Assembly: GCA_035549255.1 (NCBI GenBank)
Contig: DASZRD010000006.1
Span: 18,546-82,545, forward strand
Source: Minisyncoccota bacterium
Lineage (GTDB): Bacteria > Patescibacteriota > Minisyncoccia > Phycocordibacterales > SBAW01
Reading direction: 5' to 3'
Length of the DNA stretch: 64,000 nucleotides
The position numbers and the translations under genes are program-made. The notes beneath the pieces are model-generated. The model worked only from the letters and a program-made list of their open reading frames with translations. It made no database searches and was not told where the DNA came from. Below are positions 43,508 through 60,639 of this stretch, in pieces. The stretch's first letter is position 1; each line of letters starts with the position of its first letter.

Positions 43508-45430
43508 GTGATGGAGCATCTTTCAGGACTCAACGAGGCTCAAAAGGAGGCGGTTTTGACGACCGACGGGCCGCTTTTGGTGCTCGCGGGCGCCGGGGCG
43601 GGGAAGACGCGCGTCATTACACACCGGATACTCGAAATCGTGCGAAAGGGTACGGCGCCCGAGCATATTCTGGCGATCACGTTTACCAACAAGGCCGCCG
43701 CCGAGATGCGCGAGCGCGCCATGGCGCTCTTGCGCGGCAATGCCGACCTGGCGCGCCCCGCTTTCGAAGTCGCCCGGCCGCCATTTATATCGACCTTCCA
43801 CTCGCTGGGACTCACTTTAATTAAGGAAAACTCGAAATTGCTCGGCTTTAAGCGCTCGCCGGCCATCTACGACCGTGCGGATTCCATGCGCGCCATCAAG
43901 GAGGCGCTCAAATCCGTGGGCCTCGAGGAAATCGAGCCGAGAGCGGCGCTCTCGTTCATTTCGCGCAACAAGGGGGAGGGGGTACGCGCGAGCGAGTTTG
44001 AGAGCGAGAGCCCCTACGAGCGCTCGATCGCCGGCGTGTGGCTTGCCTACGAACGGGCGCTCGCCCAGGACGGCGCGCTCGACTTCGATGACCTCCTGCT
44101 GCGCGCGCTTATCCTGCTGCGCGACAACCCGGAGGCGCGCGCCAGGTACCAGAAGCGCTGGCCCTACATCCTTATTGACGAGTATCAGGACACTAACCGC
44201 ATCCAGGCAGAGATGGTTGAGCTCCTGGTCGGCGAGAATAAAAATATCTGCGCGGTCGGCGACATCGACCAGACCATCTACGGCTGGCGCGGCGCGCAGA
44301 TCGCCAACATACTCTCGTTCGAAAAGACCTATCCGGGCGCAAAAGTAATTTTGCTCGAGGAGAACTACCGCTCGACTAAGAATATACTTTCGGCGGCCAA
44401 CGATGTGATCGCCAAGAACATGTACCGCCGCGAGAAGAACCTCTATACCAAAAATGCCGACGGGGATCTCATATCCTTCTACCAGGCGTTCGACGAGGGG
44501 GACGAAGGGCAGTTTATCGCGCGAACGATACGGGAGAAGGTGCGGGCCGGCGCGCAACCCAAGGACTTCTGCGTGCTCTATCGCGCCAACTTCCAATCGC
44601 GCGCGATCGAAGAAGCGCTGCTCAACTCGGATATCTCCTACCAGGTGCTCGGGACGAAGTTCTTCGAGCGCAAAGAAGTGAAGGATGCGCTCTCATTCAT
44701 CCGCGCGGCGCTCTATGAGACGTCGGCCGACGTTGCGCGCGTCGCGAACGTCCCGCCGCGCGGCATCGGCAAAGTGACGCTCCTCAAGATGCTCGGGGGA
44801 TTCGAGAGCGAGATTGCCGGCGCAACGGGGGAGAAGGTGCGGGCATTTAGGACGCTGCTTAAGAAGATACGCGATGCCGCGGAGAGACTGCTGCCCTCGC
44901 AGCTCGTGCAATTTGTCATGATCGAGACTGGCATGGAGCGTACGTACAAGGAAGACATGCAGGAGGGCGGCGAGCGCCTGGAGAACGTGCGCGAGCTGGT
45001 CTCGCTCGCAACGCGGTGGGATGCGGCGAGCGAGACGCCGATCGAATGTACGGAGAAATTCCTAGAGTCCGCCGCACTTCAGTCCGATCAAGATGAGTTG
45101 AAGGATGAGCAAAACGCCGTGCGCCTCATGACGGTGCACGCGGCCAAGGGGCTTGAGTTCCCGCACGTGTTCATCACTGGCTTAGAAGAAGGACTTTTCC
45201 CGTATGAGCGCGACGAGGGGGATGCGGCCGACAAGGAGGAGGAGCGCCGCCTCATGTACGTGGCGCTCACCCGCGCACGCGAGAAGGTGTACCTAAGCTA
45301 TGCCTCCTATCGCACGGTCTTCGGCTCCAAGAACGCGACCATCCCTTCGCAATTCCTCTCCGACATACCCGAGGGCCTCCTTGAGTATGAGGCGCCGGAG
45401 CGTATCGGCCGCACGATTTACCTCGACTAG
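43508..45430 (+). CDS. uvrD: UvrD/PcrA-family ATP-dependent DNA helicase
   Basis: AGAGAGKT Walker A, DEYQDTN, and SF1 motifs through VALTRAR. Confidence 0.93.
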   Translation: MMEHLSGLNEAQKEAVLTTDGPLLVLAGAGAGKTRVITHRILEIVRKGTAPEHILAITFTNKAAAEMRERAMALLRGNADLARPAFEVARPPFISTFHSLGLTLIKENSKLLGFKRSPAIYDRADSMRAIKEALKSVGLEEIEPRAALSFISRNKGEGVRASEFESESPYERSIAGVWLAYERALAQDGALDFDDLLLRALILLRDNPEARARYQKRWPYILIDEYQDTNRIQAEMVELLVGENKNICAVGDIDQTIYGWRGAQIANILSFEKTYPGAKVILLEENYRSTKNILSAANDVIAKNMYRREKNLYTKNADGDLISFYQAFDEGDEGQFIARTIREKVRAGAQPKDFCVLYRANFQSRAIEEALLNSDISYQVLGTKFFERKEVKDALSFIRAALYETSADVARVANVPPRGIGKVTLLKMLGGFESEIAGATGEKVRAFRTLLKKIRDAAERLLPSQLVQFVMIETGMERTYKEDMQEGGERLENVRELVSLATRWDAASETPIECTEKFLESAALQSDQDELKDEQNAVRLMTVHAAKGLEFPHVFITGLEEGLFPYERDEGDAADKEEERRLMYVALTRAREKVYLSYASYRTVFGSKNATIPSQFLSDIPEGLLEYEAPERIGRTIYLD

Positions 45431-45432
45431 CC

Positions 45433-46209
45433 ATGTTTGAAAAAAAGAAATCGCTCGGGCAAAACTTCCTTACCTCAACGCATTACCTTGCCCTGATCGC
45501 AGACACCGCGCGCCTTGAAAAAGATGAATGGGCGCTTGAGATCGGCCCGGGGGAGGGAACGCTTACGCAAGAGTTACTCGCGCGCGGCGCGAATGTCGTC
45601 GCGGTCGAGAAAGATCACCGGCTCATACCGATCCTCGCTGAAAAATTTGCACAGGAATTAGGTGAGGGAAGGCTCTCGCTCATCGAGGGCGACGCGCTCG
45701 AGAAAAATATCGAGATCGTCGAGCCGTATAAACTCGTAGCAAACATCCCGTATTATGTGACCGGCGCTATACTCGAGAAGTTTCTCTCGCACGAACATCA
45801 GCCAACGAGCGCGGTACTCTTGGTGCAAAAAGAGGTTGCGGAGAGAATCGCGCGCGAGAAGAAGGAGAGCATCCTCTCGCTCTCGGTTAAGGCGTATGGT
45901 AACCCAAAATATATAAAGACGGTTCCTGCGGGAGCGTTCTCTCCGCCGCCCAAGGTAGACTCGGCGATACTTTCTATAGAAAATATTTCTCGAGCGAATT
46001 TTACAGACCGCGCGCACGAGAAAAAATTCTTCGACCTTCTGCACGCCGGCTTCGCGCATAAGCGCAAGCTTTTAGCACGCAACCTTGAAGCGGTGCTAGG
46101 CGACAAAGCGGCAGGCGCGCTCGCAAGCGCGAACATCGCCGCGAACGTGCGCGCGGAGGACGTGCCGCTCAAGGGGTGGCTTGAGCTCGCAAGATTTAGA
46201 TACCGATAA
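45433..46209 (+). CDS. rsmA: 16S rRNA (adenine1518/1519-N6)-dimethyltransferase
   Basis: KKSLGQNFL N-terminal signature and the NIPY motif. Confidence 0.92.
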   Translation: MFEKKKSLGQNFLTSTHYLALIADTARLEKDEWALEIGPGEGTLTQELLARGANVVAVEKDHRLIPILAEKFAQELGEGRLSLIEGDALEKNIEIVEPYKLVANIPYYVTGAILEKFLSHEHQPTSAVLLVQKEVAERIAREKKESILSLSVKAYGNPKYIKTVPAGAFSPPPKVDSAILSIENISRANFTDRAHEKKFFDLLHAGFAHKRKLLARNLEAVLGDKAAGALASANIAANVRAEDVPLKGWLELARFRYR

Positions 46210-46606
46210 CGGGTATTGATCCGCCCGGGAAACTCGTACCAATATAGGTCATGCGCTGGCCGTATGAATAACTGAGGAATGTAAAAAGCCCGAACAAGCC
46301 GCCTTTGATCGGGTTCCAGCAGGCGAAGGGTATATCAGCAATACCCAGGATCTGTCCGCCGAGAATCGGCGGCCCAACGAGCATGGTAATCGTCGCTGGA
46401 GTCCAGATGTAATTCTTTACTATGGGGTTAATACCTGTAGACTTCACGCCCACCACCAATGAAGGACCCAAGGGGCTAATGCAAGGCGCTTCAGAGACTA
46501 TTCTTCCGCCAAAGGAGCCGGGTAATAGTTGCGCGGATGCCATCCCCGGGAGCAACAAACTGCCGACAAGCATGAATGCGGGAATAAAACGCAGATATCT
46601 ATGCAT
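46196..46606 (-). CDS. Small secreted hypothetical protein (leaderless; TATACT 6 nt upstream of the ATG)
   Basis: Signal peptide MHRYLRFIPAFMLVGSLLLPGMASAQ; Gly/Pro/Ile-rich mature part. Confidence 0.55.
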   Translation of the reverse strand: MHRYLRFIPAFMLVGSLLLPGMASAQLLPGSFGGRIVSEAPCISPLGPSLVVGVKSTGINPIVKNYIWTPATITMLVGPPILGGQILGIADIPFACWNPIKGGLFGLFTFLSYSYGQRMTYIGTSFPGGSIPVIGI

Positions 46607-46648
46607 GCATACAGTATAGCGCGGAAAAACCCTGCTATACTTTAGTCA

Positions 46649-47548
46649 ATGAATATTGCACGGTATCTTCCGAGTACCCAATTCTCCCTCATCGTATTTT
46701 CAATCCTGGCCGCCGGCGGCCTCGTACTTGCGGCGCAATACGTCACGACCCCGCACCCGACGGCAATGCCCAAGATAACAAGCTCGTCGACGCCGACATT
46801 GCCCGCACCGGATGCTAACTGGCAGGCGGCGCTCGACGCGATCCAGAGCCAGACGGGCATTACAGCGCCGGCTGCGCCAAGCGGCGACACCGTCAACAAT
46901 CTCCTGACCGCTGCGCAAAGCGACAATCTCACCACTACGGTAGGCCGCACGTTGCTGGTCAACATCTCGGCCGCCAAATCGCAAGGATTGGGGAGCGATA
47001 TCCCGACCCAGGACCAGCTCATTGCCCAGGCGAGCAGTCAGATCTCGGTAGGAGCTGACGCCCATGTCTACAAAATATCCGATCTTACGACTGCCCCGCA
47101 GACTTCGGACGCGCTTAAGGCCTATGGCAACGCGGTTATAGCAGCTATCAGCACCCACCCCAGCGCCTCCTATGATGCGACCATGAAAGTAGTCGCACAA
47201 GCCTCAGACTCCGGCAGCTCGGCGCCTCTCTCGCAACTCACTGCGATCGGGAAGGATTATCAAGGCCTCGTGAAGGATCTGCTTGCCGTGCCGGTGCCTC
47301 CGACATTCGCTCCGTTTCATCTCAAGGTCATCAATGATTTCTCAACCATGGCGGCCTCATTTACCGACATGCAAGCTATGATCGACGACCCGCTGCGCGG
47401 TATCGCCGCGCTCCAGACGTACCAATCGAATAATAACGAAGCGACGCGAGTGTTTATAAATATCGCCCAGGCACTCAATCAGCAAGGTATACTTTTCAAT
47501 ACGAGCGAACCCGGAGCGGCGTGGGCACAACTTCTCTCTGCGCAATAA
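46649..47548 (+). CDS. Membrane-anchored hypothetical protein (first gene of the T4SS-like region; leaderless with a TATACT -10)
   Basis: 299 aa; N-terminal TM helix then a Ser/Thr/Ala-rich extracytoplasmic domain. Confidence 0.55.
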   Translation: MNIARYLPSTQFSLIVFSILAAGGLVLAAQYVTTPHPTAMPKITSSSTPTLPAPDANWQAALDAIQSQTGITAPAAPSGDTVNNLLTAAQSDNLTTTVGRTLLVNISAAKSQGLGSDIPTQDQLIAQASSQISVGADAHVYKISDLTTAPQTSDALKAYGNAVIAAISTHPSASYDATMKVVAQASDSGSSAPLSQLTAIGKDYQGLVKDLLAVPVPPTFAPFHLKVINDFSTMAASFTDMQAMIDDPLRGIAALQTYQSNNNEATRVFINIAQALNQQGILFNTSEPGAAWAQLLSAQ

Positions 47549-47551
47549 CAT

Positions 47552-49402
47552 ATGACGCGAAGAATCTTATATATCATCATCGGCGGGGTGCTTTTGCTCG
47601 CGCTGTTGCTCGGGTTGTGGTTCTGGTTCTTCGGACGGGGTGCCTCGGAAGTGTCCAACCAAAGTGGGCTCTTTGGAAGCTCCGGCGACCGTACGAGCGC
47701 CGACACCTCCGGGAGCACGGGCGGTAACGGCGTAGCGCCAATAGGCTCCAACGCCGGGACCGGCGTCTCGGGGACCGGCGCCGGAGGCGCCAACACGCAA
47801 TACACTATACCTCCCGCATCAGGCGGCGGCTCGATAATCGCCTACAGCACCACCTCGTCAAGCGGCAGCTTCCAGAACCCGGCGTGGCTCGGCGGCAATT
47901 CCGGCTCGGCAGGAGGCTCGGTGAGCTTCACGCCGACGCCGATCAACACGGTTAACAACACTACTGTCTCGGGCAATCCGTACATCAACGTCAATAACGG
48001 CGACAACGCCGGCGGCGGGAGCGGCAACAGCTTTACGAGCGGGCTTTTGGGCGTAGCGGGCAGCTGCCTTGCCAACTTCCTGGCGCAGCAGGCAGGCTCC
48101 GGACTTACCTCGGCAATCGGCAGCCTCTTCGGCTCGGCCCTGGGCCAGGTACAGGTAACCGACCCTTCTACGCACGCCAACCAGCAGACCGACTCGATCC
48201 TTACCTGTGTTACCAAGGCACTCGCGCGCGCCGCGATCCAGCAGATCACCAACGACACTGTCAACTGGATCAACTCCGGCTTCGATGGCCAGCCGGCCTT
48301 CGTGCAGGACTACAACAAGTTCTTCAATGATGTATCCGACGAAGCGGCAGGCAGCGTAATCCAAGGCGGCGACCTCGCATTTCTCTGCAGTCCCTTCCAG
48401 CTCCAGGTGCGCGTCGCTATCGCGCAAAGCTACGCGCGCCGCAACCAGGCGCCTTCGTGCACGCTGAGCGGCATCACTGGCAACATTGAGGATTTTGCCA
48501 ATGGCACATTCTCCGAGGGTGGGTGGCAAGGACTCATCGCCTATACGACTGACCCAAGCAACAACCCCTATGCCGGCTACATGTATGGACAGTCGGTGCT
48601 CCAAGGGCAGATTGCGACCGCCAAACAGAACGCTACGCTACAGCTCTCGCCGGGCGGCTTCCTCTCGCAGCAGAAATGCACGACCGACAGCTCCGGCAAG
48701 AAAACGTGCACCATCCAAACGCCGGGTACGGTTATCGAATCAAATCTTGAGCAGGTATTTGGCAAGAATATCGACCAGCTCGAGCTTGCGAGCAGCATCG
48801 ACGACATCCTCAACGCGCTCATCAATCAGGTTATAACAAAGACACTCTACAAGGGCTTGGCGAGCCTCGGCAACGGGCAGAACGGCTACGGTGCCTCGCT
48901 CTCAAGCGAGGATGTAGATGCGGAGGTGCAGGCAGACAACCTCATCAACGACATATCGCAGGACGTGCAGTATGCGCAGCAATACGGCGCAACCGCGCAA
49001 GGGAGCATCAGCGACCTTCAGACCGCTCAAAGCAACCTCACCACCCTGGAGAACTGCTGGATCGGCAAGACTTCGACCGGCGCGGCGGCGAGCGCGCAAG
49101 CGGCGGGCGATCAAGTGACCGCGCTCGAGGCACAGGTAGGGGTATACAACAACAAGATTGCCGCGGCCAACAGCACCATCGCGTCGCTGCAAGATATCCA
49201 AACCCAAGCCCTTAACTCCGCCTCTTCGGCCGACGTGGCGAACGCCCAGGACGCCTTCGACCAATTCCAGGCTTCGGGCAACCTCATTACTCAGACGCAG
49301 GTGCAGTCGGCACAGCAGGACCGCACCACGCTCCAGGCGCAGATGGCCTCGCTCAACACCACAACCAATGCAAAACTCGGCCAATGCAATGTCGCGAATT
49401 AG
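47552..49402 (+). CDS. Large membrane-anchored Gly/Ser-rich protein with a Gln/Ala-rich coiled C-terminus
   Basis: 616 aa; N-terminal TM helix. Confidence 0.6.
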   Translation: MTRRILYIIIGGVLLLALLLGLWFWFFGRGASEVSNQSGLFGSSGDRTSADTSGSTGGNGVAPIGSNAGTGVSGTGAGGANTQYTIPPASGGGSIIAYSTTSSSGSFQNPAWLGGNSGSAGGSVSFTPTPINTVNNTTVSGNPYINVNNGDNAGGGSGNSFTSGLLGVAGSCLANFLAQQAGSGLTSAIGSLFGSALGQVQVTDPSTHANQQTDSILTCVTKALARAAIQQITNDTVNWINSGFDGQPAFVQDYNKFFNDVSDEAAGSVIQGGDLAFLCSPFQLQVRVAIAQSYARRNQAPSCTLSGITGNIEDFANGTFSEGGWQGLIAYTTDPSNNPYAGYMYGQSVLQGQIATAKQNATLQLSPGGFLSQQKCTTDSSGKKTCTIQTPGTVIESNLEQVFGKNIDQLELASSIDDILNALINQVITKTLYKGLASLGNGQNGYGASLSSEDVDAEVQADNLINDISQDVQYAQQYGATAQGSISDLQTAQSNLTTLENCWIGKTSTGAAASAQAAGDQVTALEAQVGVYNNKIAAANSTIASLQDIQTQALNSASSADVANAQDAFDQFQASGNLITQTQVQSAQQDRTTLQAQMASLNTTTNAKLGQCNVAN

Positions 49403-51575
49403 CGGCCCAACAAAGAGACTTCTCGCAATCGGCTCAAAAGCGGTGGTGGCATTCACCCTGCTCGTGGTCGTCTTCTCCCCGGTAGGACAACTTCTACAAA
49501 CACCTTGGGTAGAAGCTGCGGGTTGTCCCGATGGATCTCGAGCAGATCAGGGGTATGGCGGTGCTTATCCCTGCTACAACCAGACTACGGAGGCCGAGGT
49601 AGGGTACGTTGATCAGAAGGGCACATTCGTACCGACAGACGCGCAAGGCCACCCCACGAGCGGCGACAACACAGGTGCCGCTTTCTGTAACGACTTCGGC
49701 AACTGTTTGGCGCAGATTGTCTATGTATTTACGGCGGGGCTCGGCGGCTGGGTCGCGGGCATTGCTTCTTTCATATTCAATACCACCGTTCAGCTCTCGC
49801 TCAGCAGTACTGCCTATGCGCAAGGGTTCTTAAGCCAAGGGTGGGCAACGTCCCGCGACCTCGCGAACATGTTCTTTATCCTTATTCTTGTCTACATAGC
49901 AGTTACTGTCGTGCTCAAGGCCGATACGCACGGCACCATCCAGAGCCTGGTGTGGGTTATATTCATCGCGCTCATTATCAATTTCAGCTTCTTCTTCACT
50001 CGGGTCGTCATAGACGCGGGCAACTTCGCCGCCGTGCAGTTCTATGACGCTATTCAGGTACCGAAGGCAGCGGATGAGACGACCGCGAGTCAGGCGGTAA
50101 CCGCAACGACCGGCAAGAAAGATCTCGCCGCCGCCATCATGCAAGATCTTGGCGTCACCAATATATTGAGCAGTAACTCGTTCAAGGCCTTCCAAGCGAA
50201 CAATCAAGATCCTTCCTTCCTCACGGAGTTTATTACGCTCTCGGTTATTTATCTCTCAACCGGCATCATGCTCTTCGTCCTGGCGGCTGGGCTGGCGGCG
50301 GCGGCAATCAAGTTTCTTATGCGCGTTGCTACGCTTTGGATCATTATTATCGTCTCGCCGCTGGCATTGGTCGCAAGCGCGATGCCGCCTGTCAGGAAGT
50401 ATTTTGATCAGTGGCGCGACGCGCTTATTGCCAACGCCTTCTTCCCGGTGGCGTTTCTCTTTATCTTCTGGATCATCACGCTCTTTGCGAGCGGGCTCAA
50501 CATACAAGACACATTTGATAAGCTTACCGCTTCTTCTCCAACTGCCGCCAGTTCGGGGATCGAGACACTCCTCAACCTCATCGCCAACATTACGATACGC
50601 ATGGGCTTCGTGATCGCGCTCATCTTCCTCGGGCTTCGCGCGGCCGATCAAGTCGGCATCATGGGCGCCCAGCTCGCCAACAACTGGGGCAACAAGCTCG
50701 CTTTTGGCGGAAGTGCATGGGTAGGAAGGCAGACTGCTGGCCGCGCCGGGCTTGCCGCGACGCGCAGCGAAGGCTTGCGTCAGTGGGCGAGCGAGAGCGC
50801 GGTGGGCGCCATGGTCTTCCGCGGCGCCGGGGCGCTTAGCCGAGGGAGCTTCGACGTGCGCAGTCTCCCGGGTGCCGGCAATCTCAAGGGTCAATTGGGT
50901 GAGGCAGGGGGCAAAGGTGGCATAGCAGCGTCCGTAGACAAGAAAGACAAGGCTCGAGAAAAAGCAATCCATGACTTTGGCGAGAGCCTCAAGCCCGACA
51001 TCAAAGACCAGAATAGAATCCAGCAAGAACACATTGAAAGTGTGGGGGGCAGGGCTGAGTTTAACGCTCTGGTAGAAAGTCTTACGAGAGATATGAACCG
51101 CACAAAGGCAGAGGCTGAGAGCAACCGAGATAAAGCAAAGGTGGAGACAGACGAGGCAGAAAAGAAGAGACTTAATCAAGAGGCGACTGTCGCAGAAAAT
51201 AGGGTAAAGGCGCTCCAAAAGGAGATTAAGGGTCACGTTGAGCATGGTAAAAAAGAGGCGGATGATATTGGCAAAGAACGCACGCATGAACTCGCGGAAC
51301 GTCTCGCAAGCAATACGGATTTCTGGACTTCGCGCGGCACGCTTAAGGGCATTGCCAGCCTGACCCACCACGAGACCAAGGAACAAAAGCTCGCTAAAGC
51401 CGCTAAAGATCTTATTGACGGAGACGAGCATGGGACTACAGATAACCACGATGAGGAACATAGTCCTGCTACAACACCTACAAAATCTGCACCTACACCC
51501 TCTAAAACGGGACCTGCGAATGATAACCACGCGCCAGCTGCAAATGATAACCATGGCGGGGATCACGGTCATTAA
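49368..51575 (+). CDS. VirB6/TrbL-like polytopic membrane protein with a periplasmic N-domain and a long charged C-terminal extension
   Basis: At least six predicted TM helices after an ~170-aa secreted domain; C-terminal 270 aa are Lys/Glu-rich coiled coil ending in His/Asp repeats. Start ambiguous (ATG at 49368 or 49389). Confidence 0.55.
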   Translation: MQNSANAMSRISGPTKRLLAIGSKAVVAFTLLVVVFSPVGQLLQTPWVEAAGCPDGSRADQGYGGAYPCYNQTTEAEVGYVDQKGTFVPTDAQGHPTSGDNTGAAFCNDFGNCLAQIVYVFTAGLGGWVAGIASFIFNTTVQLSLSSTAYAQGFLSQGWATSRDLANMFFILILVYIAVTVVLKADTHGTIQSLVWVIFIALIINFSFFFTRVVIDAGNFAAVQFYDAIQVPKAADETTASQAVTATTGKKDLAAAIMQDLGVTNILSSNSFKAFQANNQDPSFLTEFITLSVIYLSTGIMLFVLAAGLAAAAIKFLMRVATLWIIIIVSPLALVASAMPPVRKYFDQWRDALIANAFFPVAFLFIFWIITLFASGLNIQDTFDKLTASSPTAASSGIETLLNLIANITIRMGFVIALIFLGLRAADQVGIMGAQLANNWGNKLAFGGSAWVGRQTAGRAGLAATRSEGLRQWASESAVGAMVFRGAGALSRGSFDVRSLPGAGNLKGQLGEAGGKGGIAASVDKKDKAREKAIHDFGESLKPDIKDQNRIQQEHIESVGGRAEFNALVESLTRDMNRTKAEAESNRDKAKVETDEAEKKRLNQEATVAENRVKALQKEIKGHVEHGKKEADDIGKERTHELAERLASNTDFWTSRGTLKGIASLTHHETKEQKLAKAAKDLIDGDEHGTTDNHDEEHSPATTPTKSAPTPSKTGPANDNHAPAANDNHGGDHGH

Positions 51576-51614
51576 TAATGCTTACTAAAAAGCTCAAAAG
51601 TGTAGAATAGATAT

Positions 51615-52376
51615 ATGCCGGAACAAAACGACATCGCCAAACAAATAGAAGAGCGCATCGCGCAACTGCCCGAGGACATCCGCAATGCGGTGCTTGCGAG
51701 CGATTTCGACCAGAAGATCCAAGCGATAGGGAAGGCGCACAACCTCCATATCGACCAAGCCCAGCAGCTTGGCACCGAAACGTCGCTCGTGATGCTTGGA
51801 GTCCTGCCGATGAGCGATTACGCCGACAATATCGCGCGGGAAGTCCGCGTGTCGCGTACAGAGGCCGACAAGATTATTGCGGACGTTAACACGCAGATCT
51901 TCGCTCCCATCCGCGAGTCGATGAAGCGCACCTACGAAGAAGCGTCGACCGCGCAGGCAGCGCCGGCAAATCCGCCCGCGATGGGCATGAGCAACGGCAA
52001 ATCTGTCGTGATGCCTTCGCGGGCGGCCGCACAAACACCTGTGCCTGTAATGCCTCCGGTACCTCCGTCGCGTCCGGTGCCCAAGATGCCGCCGGCTCCA
52101 GATACGCCTCCGATGACGCCTCCGGGCCCAAGCCCCATACCCGCTCCTCCGATGGTGCCTCCCATGGGGAGCAAGGCTGCAATGCCGCTTCAGATCGGCC
52201 CTACTACGCAGCTCGCCGGTATGCCCAAGCCTTCTATACCCGTAGCTCCGAGTATGCATGCGGCGGATGTAGTGATCACTCAAAAAACAGTCGAGGTGCA
52301 AGCCGCTCCCGCGGCAGTACCGCCCAAACCGCAATCGTACAAAGCAGACCCGTATCGCGAGCCGATTGAGCCATAA
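51615..52376 (+). CDS. Proline-rich hypothetical protein (leaderless; TAGAAT 6 nt upstream)
   Basis: Structured N-terminal 100 aa followed by a Pro/Ala/Met-rich low-complexity C-terminus. Confidence 0.55.
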   Translation: MPEQNDIAKQIEERIAQLPEDIRNAVLASDFDQKIQAIGKAHNLHIDQAQQLGTETSLVMLGVLPMSDYADNIAREVRVSRTEADKIIADVNTQIFAPIRESMKRTYEEASTAQAAPANPPAMGMSNGKSVVMPSRAAAQTPVPVMPPVPPSRPVPKMPPAPDTPPMTPPGPSPIPAPPMVPPMGSKAAMPLQIGPTTQLAGMPKPSIPVAPSMHAADVVITQKTVEVQAAPAAVPPKPQSYKADPYREPIEP

Positions 52377-52397
52377 AGGTGCGGTATACTGGTAGCG

Positions 52398-52841
52398 ATG
52401 CGCTATCAAGTGCCGCAGTTTATCGAGATCGAAGACAAGATCTTCGGCCCCCTAACCCTCAAGCAGTTCATCTATTTGGCGGGCGGGGCGGGGCTGTGCC
52501 TCATTTTCTTTTCACTGTTGCCGCTATGGCTCACCATCATATGCTCGATACCTGTAATGGCACTATGCGCCGGGCTCGCTTTCTATCAGATCAATGGCCG
52601 ACCGCTTATCGTGGCGCTCGAACATGCCACAGGCTACCTCTTCGGGCACAAGCTGTACCTCTGGAAGCAGCGCGAAGCTAAGGCTTCAATCGCTGCGGCT
52701 CCTGCGACGGCAGGGGCGGCGCTTCCGCCGGTACCTAAGCTCTCGGAGAGCAAGCTCAAGGATCTCGCGTGGTCGCTCAATATCAAGGATCGCAATATCA
52801 TGGGCGTGAACACGCAGCAGCGCACAGGATTTGAGATTTGA
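52398..52841 (+). CDS. VirB3/PrgI-like small two-TM membrane protein
   Basis: 147 aa; QFIEIEDKIFGPLTLKQFIYLAGGAGLCLIFFSL hairpin of two TM helices, placed just upstream of the VirB4 homolog; its own TATACT -10 lies 7 nt upstream. Confidence 0.5.
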   Translation: MRYQVPQFIEIEDKIFGPLTLKQFIYLAGGAGLCLIFFSLLPLWLTIICSIPVMALCAGLAFYQINGRPLIVALEHATGYLFGHKLYLWKQREAKASIAAAPATAGAALPPVPKLSESKLKDLAWSLNIKDRNIMGVNTQQRTGFEI

Positions 52842-53511
52842 TATGGCAGACGCACCCGTCAAAGCACAAGCGACGCAGGAATTCGTACCCCTCAAGGAGG
52901 TGCGCGACGGCGTCGTGATCATGAAAGACGGCAGCCTCCGTGCCCTCCTCATGGCATCTTCGATCAACCTCGCACTCAAGTCGACTGACGAGCAGAACGC
53001 GATCATCGGGCAGTTTCAGAACTTCCTCAACTCTCTCGAATTCACGACACAATTTTTTATTCAAAGCCGCGACCTCGACATCCGCCCCTACGTCGCGTTG
53101 CTTGAAGAGCGCTACGCCGCCGAGCTTGACGATCTCATGAAAATCCAAATCCGCGAGTATATCGTCTTCATCAAGGATTTCACCGAGCGCGCGAATATCA
53201 TGACCAAAAACTTCTTTATTGTCGTACCGTACGATCCTAGCCTCGTGGCGCGTGGCGGGGGAGTGAGCGCGCTCGGAAGCCTCATCCCAGGAAAAGGCGG
53301 AAACAATTCTTCTGCGCTTACCGACGAGCAGTTCGAGCAATACCGCACGCAGCTCGAGCAGCGCATCGCAGTCGTGGAGCAGGGCCTCGTGCGCACCGGC
53401 GTGCGCGTCGTGAAGCTCGGCACTGAGGAGGTGATCGAGCTCTTCTACAAGCTCTTCAACCCCGGCGAGCTTGAAAAGCCGCTTCAGGTAAGCCAGATGG
53501 CAGCGCAATAA
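52831..53511 (+). CDS. VirB4/TraC-family ATPase, N-terminal region (separated from the ATPase part by one in-frame TAA)
   Basis: Same reading frame as 53515..55329; the combined length (830 aa) matches full-length VirB4. The N-terminal EFVPLKEVRDGVVIMKDGSLRALL resembles VirB4 N-termini (inference from memory). Confidence 0.55.
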   Translation: MRFDMADAPVKAQATQEFVPLKEVRDGVVIMKDGSLRALLMASSINLALKSTDEQNAIIGQFQNFLNSLEFTTQFFIQSRDLDIRPYVALLEERYAAELDDLMKIQIREYIVFIKDFTERANIMTKNFFIVVPYDPSLVARGGGVSALGSLIPGKGGNNSSALTDEQFEQYRTQLEQRIAVVEQGLVRTGVRVVKLGTEEVIELFYKLFNPGELEKPLQVSQMAAQ

Positions 53512-53514
53512 TAT

Positions 53515-55329
53515 ATGGCACTCTTGGGATTTTTAGGTAAAAAAGAGACGCCTCCGCCGCCCATGGCGCCGATTCTCCCCGAGCAGATCTACAAGCAGGG
53601 AATACTCGAGCTTCAGGACGTCATCGCGCCCTCAGCCTTAAAGATCACGCCGCGGGAAATCAACCTCGGCGACAAGATCGCGCGGACCTTCTTCGTCATG
53701 TCGTACCCGCGCGTGCTCACCGACTCGTGGTTCGCGCCCATTATCAACCTCGACCGCGTGCTTGATATATCCATCTTCGTGCACCCGATCGACTCGGCCG
53801 AAATCCTGCGCAAGTTCCAAAAGAAAGTCGCCGAGGTGCAGAGTCAGATCATGTCACGCGAGCAGAAGGGCCTCGTGCGCGACCCGGTACTCGACACCGC
53901 CTACCGCGACCTTGAGGACCTGCGCGATCAACTCCAGCAGGCGCAGGAGCGCATCTTTGACGTCGGCGTATACATCACCATCTACGGCGCCACCGTCGAA
54001 GAACTCGACAAGGCGGAGAGCGAGATCAAGTCGATGCTCGAGTCACGTCTCGTGTATGTGAAGCCGGCGCTCTTCCAGCAGGAGCAGGGCTTCAAGTCGG
54101 TCCTGCCGCTGGGCCACGATGAGCTCAACGTCAATTCAAAACTGAATTCGAGCCCGCTCTCGAGCATCTTCCCGTTCGTCTCCTTCGACCTTACGAGCGA
54201 CAAGGGCATACTCTACGGGGTCAACCGCCACAACGCTTCGCTCGTACTCTTCGACCGCTTCAGCCTCGAGAACTACAACTCGGTTATCTTCGCCAAGTCC
54301 GGCTCCGGCAAATCGTACGCGACCAAACTCGAGATACTCCGCACGCTCATGTTCGACACCGACGTGATTGTGATCGACCCCGAGCGCGAGTACGAGTTCC
54401 TCGCGCAGGCAGTCGGCGGACGATACTTCAATATCAGCCTCAACTCTGAGCACCACATCAACCCGTTTGATCTCGCGCCTCCGCGCGAGGACGAGTCGCC
54501 AGCCGACGTATTACGCAGCAACATCGTAGCGCTGGTTGGCATGTTCCGCATTATGCTCGGGGGCCTCACGCCCGAGGAGGACGCGATCATGGACAAGGCC
54601 ATCACCGAGACGTATGCGCTCAAGGATATTACCGTCGACTCTAACTTCGCGGAGATCGAGCCGCCGCTTCTTTCCGACTTCGAATTGGTGCTCGCCGGCA
54701 TGGAGGGGAGCGAGTCTCTCGTGCAGCGCCTCAGCAAATACACCAAGGGTACGTGGGCAGGCTTCATCAACCAGCCGACCAACGTCGACCTCAACAAGCG
54801 CTTCGTCGTCTTCTCGGTCCGCGACATGGAAGACGACCTCAAGCCGGTCGCGATGTACCTCATTACGCACTTTATCTGGAACGCGGTCCGCAAGAACCTC
54901 AAAAAGCGCCTTCTGGTCATCGACGAGGCGTGGTGGATGATGAAGACCGAGGATACCGCCTCCTTCCTCTACGGCATGGCCAAGCGCGGCCGCAAGTACT
55001 ACCTCGGCCTTGCGACGATCACGCAGGACGTCGACGACTTCCTCAAGTCGCCCTATGGGCTGCCGATGATCACCAACTCGAGCCTCCAGCTCCTCCTCAA
55101 GCAATCGCCGACGACGATCGACAACCTCCAGAAGACGTTCAATCTCTCTGACGAGGAAAAGTATCTCTTGCTCGAAAGCGACGTAGGGGAGGGGATCTTC
55201 TTCGCGGGGCTCAAGCATGTCGCGATCAAGATCATCGCCTCGTATACTGAGGACCAGATCATCACGTCCGATCCAAGCCAGGTGCTTGCCCTGCGTAAAC
55301 AGAAAGAGAACCCCCAACAAACGCCATGA
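53515..55329 (+). CDS. VirB4/TraC/CagE-family conjugative-type ATPase, C-terminal part including the ATPase domain
   Basis: Walker A FAKSGSGKSYATK and Walker B RLLVIDEAWWMM. Confidence 0.85.
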   Translation: MALLGFLGKKETPPPPMAPILPEQIYKQGILELQDVIAPSALKITPREINLGDKIARTFFVMSYPRVLTDSWFAPIINLDRVLDISIFVHPIDSAEILRKFQKKVAEVQSQIMSREQKGLVRDPVLDTAYRDLEDLRDQLQQAQERIFDVGVYITIYGATVEELDKAESEIKSMLESRLVYVKPALFQQEQGFKSVLPLGHDELNVNSKLNSSPLSSIFPFVSFDLTSDKGILYGVNRHNASLVLFDRFSLENYNSVIFAKSGSGKSYATKLEILRTLMFDTDVIVIDPEREYEFLAQAVGGRYFNISLNSEHHINPFDLAPPREDESPADVLRSNIVALVGMFRIMLGGLTPEEDAIMDKAITETYALKDITVDSNFAEIEPPLLSDFELVLAGMEGSESLVQRLSKYTKGTWAGFINQPTNVDLNKRFVVFSVRDMEDDLKPVAMYLITHFIWNAVRKNLKKRLLVIDEAWWMMKTEDTASFLYGMAKRGRKYYLGLATITQDVDDFLKSPYGLPMITNSSLQLLLKQSPTTIDNLQKTFNLSDEEKYLLLESDVGEGIFFAGLKHVAIKIIASYTEDQIITSDPSQVLALRKQKENPQQTP

Positions 55330-56093
55330 TACGCGGCACACTGCTCATACTCCTCGCGCTCTTTATCGACCTGGTGCAGGCAGGGATCTCAATGGCGATT
55401 TTCGCCATAGCCTCTGCGCCCGGCACAGCGCTCGGCGGCGCAGGCGGCGCCATAGCCGGCGCGAAGCTGTGCGGCGTTGCCGGCTCGTTCCTCAGCGGGT
55501 TGTGTGCCACAGCGGGAGGATTCGTCTTCGGCCTACTTGGCAGTACGCTCAACCCGATTCTCCTTCCTTTTACCGAGCCCGTGGGCGCGGCGGCGGGCTT
55601 CGCGATCGATATATGTCTGAGCGCAACTCTCGGGTCCTTCCTCATAGTCATGGTGTATATATTCGTCGGTAAGGTGCCCGTATCGAGGCTTTTCTTCGGG
55701 CTTGGCGAGATAATCCCCGGCATCAACAACCTCCCGTTCTGGACGGCTTTCGTCATATTCTGCCTCATCAAAAAGGAGGCTCAAGAAGGGAAGGGGGCAC
55801 TCGGGGTTGCGGCGCGCATTACTCTTGCCGGGACGTCTCCCGGCAACTTGCTCGGGGCTGCCGCAGCCGGCATACAAGCTATAAACAACGGCAGCGGGCG
55901 GGCGCAGCCTCCTGTGCCGCAATTTTCGCAAAGACCGAAAGAGGAGGCTTTCCCTTCGGCACGCGGCATGATTCCGCTGGCACGGACCATGAACGCCGAC
56001 ATCCGGCCCTCCACACCGCACACAACCAACGACAACATACCTCCCGCGGCGAATGATAATCTACTAAGAGGAATCCAAGCGCATGCGACCTAA
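55326..56093 (+). CDS. Glycine-rich polytopic membrane protein (start overlaps VirB4 stop as ATGA)
   Basis: 255 aa with about five TM helices. Confidence 0.5.
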   Translation: MIRGTLLILLALFIDLVQAGISMAIFAIASAPGTALGGAGGAIAGAKLCGVAGSFLSGLCATAGGFVFGLLGSTLNPILLPFTEPVGAAAGFAIDICLSATLGSFLIVMVYIFVGKVPVSRLFFGLGEIIPGINNLPFWTAFVIFCLIKKEAQEGKGALGVAARITLAGTSPGNLLGAAAAGIQAINNGSGRAQPPVPQFSQRPKEEAFPSARGMIPLARTMNADIRPSTPHTTNDNIPPAANDNLLRGIQAHAT

Positions 56094-57117
56094 AGTAATC
56101 ATCATTTTCGTCCTGGCATTACTCTTCCTTGGCGCGCCCGCCGCCTATGCTCAAATAAGCGGGGCGGCTGCGATCGACCCCGTGAATTTTGTCATTACTC
56201 CTGAGGCGCCCGCACCGAACCAGCAGGTCACGGTCGAGGCACAGGGCGTAGGCACCTTCCTCGGCGACGCGATGATTACCTGGCAGCAAAACGGCAAGAC
56301 CGTATCCTCCGGCATCGGACAAAAAGTATTTTCTTTCACAGCTGGCAGCCTTGGCATGCCGACGCGCGTCCACGTCGTCATCAATTCCTCGGTGCAGGGG
56401 ACTATTGCGCGCGATTTTACCTTCATCCCGACGACCATCAACCTCCTATGGGAGGCCGATACGACGGTACCGCCATTCTATCGGGGCAAGGCGCTCTACT
56501 CGGCTGGCTCGAGCTTCAAGGTGCTCGCGCTCCCGCAAGTAGTGGTGAGTGGCGCGACCGTCTCGCCCTCGGCACTCTCGTACCAATGGTCGGTCAACGA
56601 TACGCCGGTAGTCGACCAATCGGGCAAGGGGCGCACCGTGCTTCAGGTTGACGGCAACCAGTTGCATACCGACGAAGAGATCTCTGTCGCGGTATACCTC
56701 AATAGTTCGCATATCGGCGATGCAGATATCACCATCCCCGCAGTCGACCCAAACCTTGTTCTGTATGTAAAGGATCCGTTGCGCGGGGTTCTCTTTGACC
56801 AGGCGCTTCCTTCGAGCGTCTCGCTCACCGGCCAGGAGATAACACTCCAGGCAGAGCCATATTACTTCTCAAACGACAGCAAGGAGAGCGGCTCGCTCTC
56901 GTATGCATGGACGCTCAACGGATCAAGCACATCGGGCCCCGACTCCGCCAACGGCACGCTCACCTTGCGCCAGGCTGGAGCCGGAGAGGGAGCGGCGTCC
57001 CTTGGGGTGCAGCTTCAGAACATGGATTCGTCTAGAATAGTACAGGCGGCCCAGGCCGCGCTTCAGATATTCTTTGGCGGGCAGACAACGTCCTCGGGCC
57101 CCACATTCGGCATATGA
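56083..57117 (+). CDS. Secreted hypothetical protein
   Basis: Signal peptide MRPKVIIIFVLALLFLGAPAAYAQ; beta-rich composition. Confidence 0.55.
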   Translation: MRPKVIIIFVLALLFLGAPAAYAQISGAAAIDPVNFVITPEAPAPNQQVTVEAQGVGTFLGDAMITWQQNGKTVSSGIGQKVFSFTAGSLGMPTRVHVVINSSVQGTIARDFTFIPTTINLLWEADTTVPPFYRGKALYSAGSSFKVLALPQVVVSGATVSPSALSYQWSVNDTPVVDQSGKGRTVLQVDGNQLHTDEEISVAVYLNSSHIGDADITIPAVDPNLVLYVKDPLRGVLFDQALPSSVSLTGQEITLQAEPYYFSNDSKESGSLSYAWTLNGSSTSGPDSANGTLTLRQAGAGEGAASLGVQLQNMDSSRIVQAAQAALQIFFGGQTTSSGPTFGI

Positions 57118-57821
57118 AAAAGCAATCTTTCATAATTACACTCGCAACCATCGCCCTATTTTTTGCTGCTGCTCATGCCGCCTTTGCGGCGCCGGCCACA
57201 AGCGTTACCGGGGGAGACAACGCCGGCCTCAAGTGCGATAGCAGCGGCAACTGCACTTACGTACCCCTCGAGCCACTCCCTGGCTATGACCAAGCGCAGC
57301 CAACTGACCTCGGCTCGTTTCTTACACTCGGCTTTCGGGTCATCTTTTCCCTCAGTGCCATCTTCGCAGTGATGATGCTCGCCTTCGCCGGCGTGCAATA
57401 TATGGTTTCTGACGTTGCGCATGTGAAGGCATCGGCCATGGACCGCGCCTGGGCCGCCATATATGGAATACTCATACTCGCCGGATCATGGCTCATCCTC
57501 AACACCATCAACCCACAGCTCCTCAATTTCAACTTCCAAGTTCCTGGCTCTGGTTCAATTGGTGCACCGGGCAATACGACCGGCGTCAGCGCCTCCGGGA
57601 GCGGCGGCAACGGTACGGGCTCGAGCATTCCTGAAATCACTGTTACTGTTCCGTATGTGCATATCTATCAGTCTGATGACACTGCAACTAGGAATCAAAA
57701 GTATCAATCACTTAAGAGTCAGTGTACCGGAGCGAGACATATTGTTGTAAATAACTATACCGGCACTGACGTCAACGGGAGTTACGTTGAGGTGGAGTGT
57801 GTGGGCAATCAATCACAATGA
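57114..57821 (+). CDS. VirB2/TrbC-like candidate pilin (signal peptide plus two hydrophobic helices)
   Basis: MKKQSFIITLATIALFFAAAHAAFA, then LGFRVIFSLSAIFAVMMLAFAGV and AWAAIYGILILAGSWLILNTI. Confidence 0.45.
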   Translation: MKKQSFIITLATIALFFAAAHAAFAAPATSVTGGDNAGLKCDSSGNCTYVPLEPLPGYDQAQPTDLGSFLTLGFRVIFSLSAIFAVMMLAFAGVQYMVSDVAHVKASAMDRAWAAIYGILILAGSWLILNTINPQLLNFNFQVPGSGSIGAPGNTTGVSASGSGGNGTGSSIPEITVTVPYVHIYQSDDTATRNQKYQSLKSQCTGARHIVVNNYTGTDVNGSYVEVECVGNQSQ

Positions 57822-59059
57822 CTACACAACGCATGATCTACATAGTTGGCGGAGTTATAGCAGTACTGCTAGTTATATGGAGTATATGGTTCCTGTTCTT
57901 TAAGAGCTCGGCAACTCCTTCAACATCACAAGAGGGGAGCGGTTTTGGGGTAGGGGACGATCGCACGATAAACGTTACTTCGACCTCCGGCTCCGACGCT
58001 TCGGATAATACGGCCGTATCTCTACCGTCTTCAAACGGGCAGCTGGTCTTCAAGATAGCCGATGGCCCCGTCACGACGGCGGCTCTCATCCAGACATCAA
58101 ACCCAACCACGACATTGGCGCGCTATGTGTTGCAGGAAAATGGCCATGTATTCGACCAGGTGATCGACAACCCGGGCGCCGTGCCGCGAGCAATATCAAA
58201 CACCACCATCCCCGGGACTGAGCGTGGCGTGTGGCTTAATGGAAATGCCGTCATACTCCAATATCTCGACGATACGAATATTAAAAGCGTGTATTTGGGG
58301 TTCCCGCCGCAGGCAACCAGCACGGCACCCGCTACGCGACCCGTGCAGATAAAATTCCTGCCGGACAATATCGAGGATGTAGCGGGGTCGCCCGACGGCT
58401 CGAGTATCGCCTATCTCCTCCCGTCAGCATCCGGCATTACCGGCTATACCGCCAAAGCAGACGGGACGGGAAGCAAGAATCTTTTCTCCATGCCGCTTTC
58501 GGACTTTGTTATCTCATGGCCATCAGCATCGACTCTCTTGCTGCAGACAAAAAATTCTTCCTCGGCTCCTGGAGCAGCATTCTCGGTTAGCGCACAAACG
58601 GGCGGCATTGTACCTATCTTGTACGCTTACGGCCTGAGCGCTATAGCCGATCGTACTTTTAGCGAAATTGTATATCGAACGTCCAATGGTACGGGCGGCT
58701 CGACCTTTATACATAGCGTAAAGGCTGGTAACGATATGCCCCTCTCCTTTGATCCTATCCCTGAGAAATGTATTTGGAGCAATGTGAACGCAGTGGTCAT
58801 GTATTGTGCATTGCCATTCCAAAGTTTGCCGACAAATTATATCGACTCATGGCATCAGGGCACCGCGTCGTTGGCAGATACAATCTTTTCATTTAATACC
58901 GCAACGGGGGATAGTACGATTATTGCCTCTCCCGGCACTGCCGATGGCGGCGTCCTCTCGGACATCGCAGAAATGAACATCGCTCCCGACGACTCGTATC
59001 TCGTGTTTATTAAAAAAGGCGACCGCTCTTTGTGGGGCGTCCGCCTTGGCTCACACTAG
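57797..59059 (+). CDS. Membrane-anchored extracytoplasmic hypothetical protein (last gene of the cluster)
   Basis: 420 aa; N-terminal TM helix. Confidence 0.5.
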   Translation: MCGQSITMTTQRMIYIVGGVIAVLLVIWSIWFLFFKSSATPSTSQEGSGFGVGDDRTINVTSTSGSDASDNTAVSLPSSNGQLVFKIADGPVTTAALIQTSNPTTTLARYVLQENGHVFDQVIDNPGAVPRAISNTTIPGTERGVWLNGNAVILQYLDDTNIKSVYLGFPPQATSTAPATRPVQIKFLPDNIEDVAGSPDGSSIAYLLPSASGITGYTAKADGTGSKNLFSMPLSDFVISWPSASTLLLQTKNSSSAPGAAFSVSAQTGGIVPILYAYGLSAIADRTFSEIVYRTSNGTGGSTFIHSVKAGNDMPLSFDPIPEKCIWSNVNAVVMYCALPFQSLPTNYIDSWHQGTASLADTIFSFNTATGDSTIIASPGTADGGVLSDIAEMNIAPDDSYLVFIKKGDRSLWGVRLGSH

Positions 59060-60332: not shown

Positions 60333-60639
60333 GAAGAAGCGTTTTTAGGTTCGAGCTGAAGGCAGTCGCAAGGTCGCCGGGGGGTATGGACTGTACAAAC
60401 AGTATCGCATGCCCGGTGGGGGGCAGGGAAGCCGCCCCAAGCGCGCGGTAGCCCGCCCGGCGCAGCCGGTTGCGCATGACGGCGGTCTTGGCGACCTTTT
60501 TCGATACCACCACCGCACAACGGAAAACCGTTGTCGTTTCTAGGTATTTGAGCGAAAACGGCCCCGCCCGGCGGGTGCTGCCCCGGGAGAGGACCTCGCG
60601 TACTTCATCCGCGCGCAGTCGGCGGCGAGAGGGGATCAT
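60325..60639 (-). CDS. rnpA: Ribonuclease P protein component
   Basis: Basic 104-aa protein (RNR motif KTAVMRNRLRR); rpmH-rnpA-yidC synteny. Confidence 0.88.
   Translation of the reverse strand: MIPSRRRLRADEVREVLSRGSTRRAGPFSLKYLETTTVFRCAVVVSKKVAKTAVMRNRLRRAGYRALGAASLPPTGHAILFVQSIPPGDLATAFSSNLKTLLHV

Follow-up and report, generated by a model that had tools for sequence, protein, structure and literature searches.

A probable Patescibacteria-clade type IV secretion system beside dnaA in a Paceibacteria genome

Introduction

Type IV secretion systems (T4SSs) that are non-conjugative and located close to the replication origin were already described in papers of the years 2023-2025. Here, such a locus is analyzed, an 11-gene cluster at positions 46649-59059 of a 64-kb stretch of a Minisyncoccota genome (assembly GCA_035549255.1, contig DASZRD010000006.1, positions 18,546-82,545; the whole stretch of 64,000 nucleotides is called the window). 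The locus is a well-resolved example of the described system and not a discovery, and the novelty implied by a preliminary description of the sequence does not hold, as the same system, its missing parts and its origin-proximal context are already found in the literature (PMC12102498, PMC10633639; reviewed in PMC12857230).

It was shown that VirB4 is present in ~80% of 3,035 Patescibacteria genomes, that the Patescibacteria VirB4 proteins form a monophyletic clade nested in MPF_FATA, and that TrsD, PrgI/VirB3, VirB6 and VirB2-like pilins are encoded near virB4 (Quinonero-Coronel et al., 2025; PMC12102498). Relaxases are almost absent from these bacteria, type IV coupling proteins (T4CPs) are rarely encoded adjacent to virB4, and many VirD4 homologs lie far from it. 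In Paceibacteria and Microgenomatia the locus is found near dnaA, dnaN, rnpA, rpmH and ksgA, which was read as a gene-dosage effect; the orientation of the cluster is not discussed (PMC12102498). For S. epibionticum, transposon sequencing revealed that SEML1_0006-0019 are essential for epibiotic growth, and the flanking genes SEML1_0004 and 0005 score as essential, too. This cluster follows dnaA/recF and encodes VirB4, TrsD-like, PrgI and VirB6-like proteins as well as six pilins, and the authors favour protein export or an alternative role (Wang et al., 2023; PMC10633639). Apart from the T4SS of Patescibacteria, none has so far been reported to be essential for its own carrier, and this system is also one of the main candidates for the means by which ultrasmall episymbionts exploit their hosts.

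The locus in the window is read here as the Paceibacteria form of the Patescibacteria-clade T4SS, which is chromosomal, vertically inherited and MPF_FATA-derived and would act as a non-conjugative host-interaction device. We assign this reading a probability of about 0.75; the rival explanations discussed below share roughly the remaining quarter, and two of them, a conjugative remnant and an apparatus that is not a T4SS, are nearly excluded. The core of the reading, a T4SS-like apparatus based on VirB4, VirB6, VirB3 and VirB2 without conjugative function, encoded beside dnaA in a reduced-genome episymbiont lineage, had been proposed in the preliminary description and is supported by the family assignments and by the lack of genes for T4CP, VirB11 and relaxase in the 64 kb. 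Like the described systems of the clade (PMC12102498; SEML1_0004-0019, PMC10633639), the locus combines an MPF_FATA-type VirB4 with adjacent TrsD, PrgI/VirB3, a tentatively assigned VirB6-like protein and a VirB2-like pilin, has neither a relaxase nor a T4CP at the locus and lies on the chromosome beside dnaA/dnaN and, as in other Paceibacteria, beside rnpA, rpmH and ksgA. The Paceibacteria form has one pilin with a long C-terminal extension, whereas the Saccharimonadia have an array of six, and, compared to the Saccharimonadia T4SS, the window cluster contains no NTF2/VirB8-like protein, lysozyme or peptidase. Moreover, the window has an accessory set of its own, i.e., TolB-like, immunoglobulin (Ig)-repeat, four-helix-bundle, WINSGF and DPYRE proteins, which is not described component by component in the two studies (PMC12102498, PMC10633639).

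A vertically inherited chromosomal locus

For comparison, 80 species-level Paceibacteria loci (L001-L080) were fetched and ranked by VirB4 similarity. In every contig that reaches far enough, the gene order is uvrD-ksgA-g299-g616-virB6-pro253-prgI-trsD-virB4-(small polytopic protein)-sp344-pilin-g420-(jag)-yidC-rnpA-dnaA-dnaN. The synteny comparison with T4SS-like loci of Patescibacteria that had been suggested earlier therefore yields the same order between ksgA and yidC/dnaA in 80 genomes. VirB4 is 76-94% identical across these genomes. The median identity to the window proteins is 79% for VirB4, 61% for TrsD, 55% for DnaA, 51% for UvrD, 50% each for KsgA and PrgI, 41% for DnaN and 37% for YidC, and it falls to 25-34% for the accessory proteins. 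The ranking by VirB4 similarity is a caveat for comparing these values, but each comparison was made inside one and the same pair of genomes: VirB4 surpasses DnaA in identity in 53 of 53 genomes, the median margin being 23 percentage points, and its conservation also exceeds that of UvrD, KsgA, DnaN and YidC. VirB4 is under strong purifying selection. This degree of conservation is unusual for a T4SS ATPase and, judged from the sequences, would be consistent with a housekeeping role.

The GC content of the cluster equals that of the rest of the window. Because of the fixed position in 80 genomes, the matching GC content and the slow evolution of VirB4, the locus is a core gene set that is inherited vertically and strongly constrained, and not a mobile element. 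These data bear on the view that the cluster is a decayed or domesticated conjugative element, i.e., a remnant of an integrative and conjugative element or of a plasmid with ongoing or recent DNA transfer. VirB4 does belong to the conjugative CD1110 family, its nearest relatives outside the candidate phyla radiation are encoded on conjugative Bacillota and Actinomycetota plasmids, and the order PrgI-VirB4 is the same as in the plasmid comparator. However, a relaxase, a T4CP, an integrase or an oriT-associated gene was not found at the locus, its chromosomal position is identical in the 80 species-level genomes, it does not deviate in GC content from the host genome and VirB4 evolves slower than DnaA, which is the opposite of what a decaying element would show, making a conjugative remnant hardly tenable.

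According to the open reading frame (ORF) calls in the window, the 11 plus-strand genes follow each other at 46649-59059 nearly without intergenic space. Gaps of 3 nt separate g299 from g616 and trsD from virB4, overlaps of 4 nt occur at the virB4/gly255 and sp344/pilin junctions (gly255 being the small polytopic protein of the window) and overlaps of 11 nt at prgI/trsD and gly255/sp344. The other overlaps within the cluster measure 35 nt and 25 nt, the latter shrinking to 4 nt if the ATG of g420 is at 57818, and there are only two larger intergenic gaps, of 39 and 21 nt. Most of the 11 co-oriented genes thus overlap. The preliminary description had recognized this tightly packed plus-strand gene cluster, with several overlaps, at essentially correct coordinates. 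It had counted about thirteen genes instead of 11, and the position given as cluster start, 46196, marks where a minus-strand ORF of 136 aa ends, with no plus-strand cluster gene at this position. Rfam and tRNA scans were empty across the cluster.

The VirB4 motor and its detached N-terminal domain

The motor gene virB4 (53515-55329, plus strand) encodes 604 aa that comprise the middle and C-terminal P-loop domains of a VirB4 ATPase of the monoderm CD1110/MPF_FATA type. The protein matches the NCBIfam model conju_CD1110 with 392 bits (cutoff 325; E 4.9e-117) and also the Pfam TraG P-loop family, and among known structures it matches the C-terminal domain of Thermoanaerobacter VirB4 (PDB 4AG5; E 1e-42) and TrwK (E 4e-10). 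Walker A (AKSGSGKS, residues 260-267) and Walker B (LLVIDE, residues 466-471) are present, confirming the VirB4-family ATPase with both motifs that had been noticed from the sequence. Over 557 residues it shares 32% identity with residues 205-754 of a Clostridium perfringens plasmid VirB4 (E 9e-91), and its best plasmid relatives are all monoderm with at most 36% identity. The grouping of this VirB4 with the Patescibacteria clade rests on identity and family scores and not on a formal tree.

This body of evidence also decides on the explanation that the cluster is not a T4SS at all, i.e., that an FtsK/HerA-type translocase is accompanied by unrelated membrane proteins, an alternative already named in the preliminary description. 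A secondary Pfam match of VirB4 to DUF87, the HerA central domain, has an E value of 2.2e-7, and some orthologs are named "DUF87 domain-containing protein" in databases. Yet this match is far surpassed by the above-cutoff match to conju_CD1110, by the similarity to 4AG5 and by the alignment to the plasmid VirB4, and the ATPase is flanked in fixed order by PrgI, TrsD, a VirB6-like protein and a VirB2-like pilin, so that this explanation is practically excluded.

Directly upstream of virB4 lies a gene that had been left unrecognized (52831-53511, plus strand, alternative ATG at 52843), coding for a TrsD-like protein of 226 aa, which is the detached N-terminal domain of VirB4. It matches NCBIfam TrsD with E 3.2e-9, under the full-length cutoff, and aligns to positions 101-233 of VirB4_plasma and positions 2-114 of conju_CD1110 in NCBIfam. 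The profile of its orthologs aligns to residues 20-194 of the full-length, 783-aa C. perfringens plasmid VirB4 (hhalign E 9e-6, probability 83%). As TrsD covers residues 20-194 and VirB4 residues 205-754 of one and the same plasmid protein, the alignments identify the two genes as a collinear split of a monoderm VirB4. A comparison of TrsD with the N-domain of R388 TrwK was not significant (E 0.046, probability 1%); the monoderm comparator was matched instead. TrsD adjoins virB4 in 80 of 80 loci. Readthrough of the stop codon, which would fuse TrsD and VirB4, was considered, since the pair is in frame in the window (TAA TAT ATG), yet this applies to no more than 14 of 77 loci, so that the split is genuine and TrsD a separate polypeptide.

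PrgI, the VirB6-like protein and the pilin

The first gene of the putative second operon, prgI (52398-52841, plus strand), encodes a member of the PrgI family, the equivalent of VirB3. The protein matches PF12666 with E 2.1e-10 and 41.4 bits (gathering score 27), confirming the earlier assignment as a VirB3-like protein with two transmembrane (TM) segments; these are located at residues 25-43 and 44-62 and form a hairpin. PrgI was found in 77 of the 80 loci.

The gene at 49368-51575 (plus strand; the start is uncertain, with ATG codons at 49368 and 49389) encodes an extended polytopic membrane protein resembling VirB6/TrbL in topology and, weakly, in sequence. It contains about 8 hydrophobic segments followed by a C-terminal hydrophilic region of ~310 aa with a His-rich end, in which residues 520-690 (170 aa) are 40% charged. 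The polytopic nature and the charged tail expected earlier are thus borne out, the family assignment staying below the Pfam threshold: the window copy matches PF04610 TrbL with E 0.0046 and 17 bits (gathering score 25.9). A TrbL match occurs in 6 of 41 orthologs (best E 1.6e-4). The ortholog profile aligned to R388 TrwI with an hhalign E value of 4.3e-4 but a probability of 34%, a shared FDQW segment being aligned, and a search of this profile against PDB returned TrwI at E 0.33 only. The homology of this protein to VirB6 is weak but consistent at the sequence level, and its topology and its place in the cluster agree with such a role.

The pilin gene (57114-57821, plus strand) encodes a VirB2-like T4SS pilin with a signal peptide and two hydrophobic helices (residues 74-92 and 114-132). 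Its assignment to PF18895 (T4SS_pilin) is based on the orthologs, 29 of 33 of which match this family (best E 2.2e-11), and 4 match TrbC/VirB2 (PF04956). The window copy itself matches PF18895 over residues 76-132 with E 4.2e-4, under the gathering score; topology and orthologs therefore support the VirB2-like candidate named before, the individual protein falling short of the threshold. The pilin carries an unusual C-terminal extension of ~100 aa composed of a Gly/Ser linker and a small Cys-containing domain. With a local pilin-core hidden Markov model (HMM), a single pilin gene per locus was found in 66 of 70 loci.

Missing conjugation genes and comparison with conjugative systems

By Pfam, VirD4/TraG, relaxase or VirB11 were not detected among 20 other sizeable ORFs of the window, including all of more than ~450 aa. 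Similarly, R388 TrwB and TrwC matched nothing in a phmmer search of the six-frame ORFs of the 64-kb window, and TrwD matched only a PilB-type ATPase at 16.4-18.2 kb (E 0.005). The absence of VirD4, VirB11 and relaxase that had been noted for the cluster accordingly extends to the whole 64 kb. No integrase adjoins the cluster. As relaxase, coupling protein and VirB11 are absent nearby, the system is not a conjugation system. The PilB-type ATPase (16391-18076, minus strand) has T2SSE and MshEN domains, as found in the ATPases of type IV pili (T4P) and type II secretion systems; it belongs to a separate pilus system and is the sole protein of the T2SSE family/VirB11 superfamily in the window.

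The locus shares its VirB4 family, the position of PrgI directly upstream of VirB4, the correspondence of the TrsD-like region to the VirB4 N-domain and the absence of an outer-membrane core (VirB7/9/10) with conjugative MPF_FATA systems (CD1110/CTn2 type; TrsD-TrsE of pGO1; C. perfringens pSXP-169_2). The plasmid pSXP-169_2 encodes MobC, a relaxase, VirD4 of the CD1115 family and a large SLT hydrolase and has no pilin, whereas the reverse holds for the window, which has none of these four and a VirB2-like pilin. Furthermore, VirB4 is one polypeptide of 783 aa on the C. perfringens plasmid but divided into 226 and 604 aa in the window, and the plasmid system is mobile whereas the window locus is a fixed part of the chromosomal core. 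To the minimized Gram-negative MPF_T system VirB/Trw of R388 there is likeness in the topology of the VirB2-type pilin, in the VirB3-like hairpin, in VirB4 (E 1.4e-10 to TrwK) and, weakly, in the FDQW segment of the VirB6-like protein. The window differs from R388 in having no detected homologs of VirB1, B5, B7, B8, B9, B10, B11, VirD4 or the relaxase and in its monoderm envelope.

The absence of a coupling protein also bears on the proposal that the system is an effector-translocating T4SS, which injects proteins into the host bacterium with the help of a coupling protein whose gene lies elsewhere in the genome. In Patescibacteria, VirD4 homologs are frequent and usually encoded far from virB4 (PMC12102498), so that T4CP-mediated export is conceivable; the preference for protein export or an alternative role in S. 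epibionticum points in the same direction (PMC10633639), and pro253, with its strictly positioned C-terminal motif, could be a substrate or an adaptor. This is opposed by the fact that a T4CP was not found in the 64 kb, that gene pairs resembling effectors or immunity proteins were not seen in the cluster and that the distant t4cp of S. epibionticum is non-essential, unlike the T4SS (PMC12102498). We therefore regard effector injection as quite improbable and favour the non-conjugative host-interaction device.

Nearest to the cluster among candidate cell-wall hydrolases is an exported LysM and M23 peptidase (42198-43313, minus strand), ~3-5 kb upstream of the cluster (about 3.3 kb), and adjoining it is a membrane-anchored protein with a weak DUF1402 match (41335-42183, plus strand). 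This pair could supply the VirB1-like wall remodelling that is missing from the cluster.

Accessory envelope and cytoplasmic proteins

The first gene of the cluster, g299 (46649-47548, plus strand), encodes a bitopic membrane protein. A confident AlphaFold2 model consists of an N-terminal TM helix (residues 14-32), a linker of low confidence and a C-terminal four-helix bundle. An assignment of g299 to VirB8 or VirB5 was rejected, as the model is all-helical and the bundle matches generic four-helix bundles only. It is followed by g616 (47552-49402, plus strand), which encodes a candidate surface or pilus-associated adhesin. Its N-terminal TM anchor is followed by a Gly/Ser-rich low-complexity spacer of ~170 aa, by a conserved, Cys-containing domain at about residues 200-440, termed the "WINSGF" domain, and by a C-terminal region rich in Gln, Ala, Ser and Thr. 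The orthologs of g616 bear swappable adhesin domains. A structural match was not found for g616, nor was similarity to VirB5/TraC/TrbJ in sequence or in the form of a helical bundle with an appendage.

The protein pro253 (51615-52376, plus strand) is predicted to be cytoplasmic, as it has no TM segment or signal peptide, and 17% of its residues are Pro. A conserved helical N-domain of ~110 aa and a highly variable Pro-rich linker precede the C-terminal DPYRE motif, and at 58 loci DPYR[ED] is fixed 7-9 residues from the C-terminus. Searches of Pfam and PDB with pro253 returned no match. From these features pro253 is a candidate for a tethered docking protein acting through a short linear motif, or for a substrate with a C-terminal secretion signal.

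Directly 3' of virB4, gly255 (55326-56093, plus strand) encodes a small Ala/Gly-rich polytopic membrane protein with about four TM segments. The proline-rich and the Gly-rich polytopic protein of the preliminary description are thereby both confirmed. Searches of Pfam and NCBIfam with gly255 were without match, and an iterative search recovered its family in the same slot at 55 loci. The gly255 and sp344 families are fused as one ORF of ~550-567 aa in three relatives (L004, L005 and L007), which points to a physical association of the two proteins. The idea that gly255 is a second pilin was rejected, as it is undetected by the pilin-core HMM that recovers one pilin per locus.

Four secreted or membrane-anchored proteins of the cluster had been listed as being of unknown fold, and two of them turn out to be recognizable. 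The first, sp344 (56083-57117, plus strand), is a signal-peptide protein with tandem Ig-like beta-sandwich repeats; its profile matches the Ig-like domains of Hoc in PDB (E 1.6e-4), with antibody/Ig domains ranking next. BiPBP_C is matched by 8 of 43 orthologs and PKD, Ig_3 or TIG by others, and sp344 was found in 76 of the 80 loci. The second, g420 (57797-59059, plus strand, alternative ATG at 57818), is the last gene of the cluster and encodes an N-terminal TM anchor with a TolB-like (PD40-type) beta-propeller. The ortholog profile matches TolB beta-propellers in PDB in 12 distinct chains with E values of 2e-6 to 8e-5, and single orthologs match PD40 and DPPIV_N. Two Cys residues are invariant among the g420 orthologs, which were found in 66 loci.

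Proposed mechanism and weighing of the evidence

In the proposed mechanism the motor would be composed of two polypeptides, TrsD as N-domain and VirB4 as ATPase. The PrgI/VirB3 hairpin would probably hold this motor at the membrane beside the extended VirB6-like platform, and the motor would most likely pull the Sec-exported VirB2-like pilin from the membrane and build from it, by polymerization, a pilus or tube that crosses the monoderm cell wall. The lineage-specific envelope proteins, namely the four-helix-bundle anchor, g616, the small polytopic protein, the Ig-repeat protein and the TolB-like propeller may form or decorate the outer part and contact the host, and the cytoplasmic pro253 may dock on the inner side via its fixed C-terminal DPYRE peptide. 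The function would be attachment combined with that of a contact-dependent conduit. We infer pilus assembly, accessory roles and conduit function, the assembly steps being modelled on the structural biology of R388 and other VirB systems. By analogy to the transposon sequencing data from Saccharibacteria, the apparatus is probably an essential core device for host interaction.

Several points weigh against this interpretation. The VirB6 and pilin assignments of the window copies fall below curated thresholds, and the ~100-aa extension of the pilin, which is not typical of VirB2, might not fit into a canonical pilus lattice. A VirB8-like (NTF2) or VirB1-like component was not found among the 11 cluster proteins by family searches and with two of them modelled, and 4 of the 11 are still without an informative homolog or fold match. 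The essentiality is extrapolated from another class, the Saccharimonadia, and the gene for a coupling protein could lie in another part of the genome, which would permit T4CP-mediated export of protein or DNA.

Neither a relaxase nor a coupling protein nor VirB11 is needed by two VirB4-driven DNA import systems, ComB of Helicobacter pylori and Ced of archaea. It could be imagined that the locus likewise encodes a machine for the import of nucleic acids or other macromolecules that feeds a cell unable to make nucleotides. The parts list of VirB2, VirB3, VirB4 and VirB6 without VirD4, VirB11 and relaxase is that of the ComB type, VirB4 gives weak NCBIfam matches to CedB and CedD and is constrained like a housekeeping gene, and ComEC, ComM and RecJ are encoded in the window. 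In addition, a preprint from 2026 proposes feeding on host RNA, notes the monophyletic VirB4 in the phylum and describes tubular structures, possibly T4SS pili, at the interface of parasite and host (bioRxiv 10.64898/2026.06.21.733656). Against an import machine, the diderm core of ComB (VirB7/8/9/10) is absent in the window, the similarity to CedB and CedD is confined to ~50-70 residues of the P-loop region and ComEC is encoded 37 kb off and is not syntenic with the cluster. Moreover, competence of S. epibionticum relies on T4P and ComEC, and deletion of comEC abolishes transformation and keeps viability, the T4SS still being essential, so that uptake via ComEC is not the cause of its essentiality (PMC12857230). 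An import machine of the ComB or Ced type is for these reasons unlikely.

A further suggestion starts from the accessory set, here including the small polytopic protein, which may be an extracellular or docking module without counterpart in characterized T4SSs, the machine as a whole then being a housekeeping conduit that imports host macromolecules rather than a secretion system. In that case the higher conservation of VirB4 compared to DnaA throughout the class would be accounted for; we consider this suggestion possible but doubtful, and the host-interaction device stated above stays the preferred reading.

For specialists the window provides a clean, fully syntenic Paceibacteria reference locus with a component-by-component annotation. 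It adds useful leads, namely the mapping of the split VirB4 and its hyper-conservation, the single extended pilin, the TolB-like propeller, the Ig-like protein, the four-helix-bundle anchor, the adhesin-swapping g616, the DPYRE tail and the probable leaderless starts described below; the overall picture is unchanged.

Flanking genes, orientation and putative operon starts

To the left, the cluster is flanked by uvrD/pcrA (43508-45430) and ksgA (45433-46209). Between ksgA and the cluster lies the minus-strand ORF of 136 aa mentioned above (46196-46606), which has a clear signal peptide, overlaps the ksgA stop codon and was detected in two loci only (L008 and L009). To the right, the minus-strand genes jag (59098-59586), yidC (59616-60332), rnpA (60325-60639) and rpmH (~60640-60775) are followed by dnaA (60881-62215, ATG at 60881) and dnaN, in agreement with the neighbourhood given in the preliminary description.

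Transcription of the cluster towards dnaA, also noted before, is borne out, and the orientation is conserved across related loci; the virB4 operon of S. epibionticum has the same orientation relative to dnaA. The further statement that the cluster is transcribed head-on to replication is only conditionally true, namely if oriC is located at ~60.8 kb. This position is an assumption, because the gap between rpmH and dnaA is short (~105 bp) and contains a single imperfect DnaA box, and clustering of DnaA boxes was not seen near dnaA in the window. Elsewhere in the window, two adjacent DnaA-box-like sequences (TTATCCACA and ATATCCACA) are found at 40910-40926 beside a gene for an AAA_14/DUF4143 (STAND-like) ATPase (39360-40790, minus strand), and a second pair of DnaA-box-like sequences is found at 28160-28188 near a tRNA cluster. 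A GC skew analysis split by gene strand gave no replication signal in the window (a = -0.012), and to the left of dnaA 57% of the coding bases lie on the supposedly head-on strand. The missing skew signal and this strand share suggest that this Paceibacteria lineage may have little strand bias.

The cluster presumably contains two operons. A TATACT box resembling a -10 element is located at 46636-46641 (plus strand), 7 nt before the ATG of g299, as putative leaderless start of the first operon (g299-g616-virB6), and the same sequence at 52385-52390 (plus strand), 7 nt before the ATG of prgI, as putative leaderless start of the second (prgI through g420). A similar box, TAGAAT, lies before pro253 (51603-51608, plus strand), 6-7 nt upstream of the ATG. 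The pattern TANNNT occurs 3-9 nt upstream of the start codon of g299 in 24 of 36 loci and of prgI in 48 of 74 loci, compared to 15-25% for internal genes. As the conserved boxes, 6-7 nt from the ATG, leave no room for a Shine-Dalgarno sequence, leaderless starts at g299 and prgI are probable from the sequence pattern. The box before g299 is undetected by a strict scan for two hexamers.

Other features of the window

The genes at 6307-7176 (minus strand), 8439-9782 (minus strand), 10891-12639 (minus strand) and 37707-39251 (plus strand) encode ComEC (Competence and DUF4131 domains), a separate protein of the metallo-beta-lactamase fold, RecJ and a ComM-like ATPase of the Mg-chelatase family. 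The presence of these competence and recombination genes suggests that the cell probably has DNA uptake via T4P and ComEC that is independent of the T4SS. Finally, an exported protein of 1083 aa with Kelch beta-propeller repeats (2035-5286, minus strand) may, from its predicted features, be a surface or host-interaction protein.

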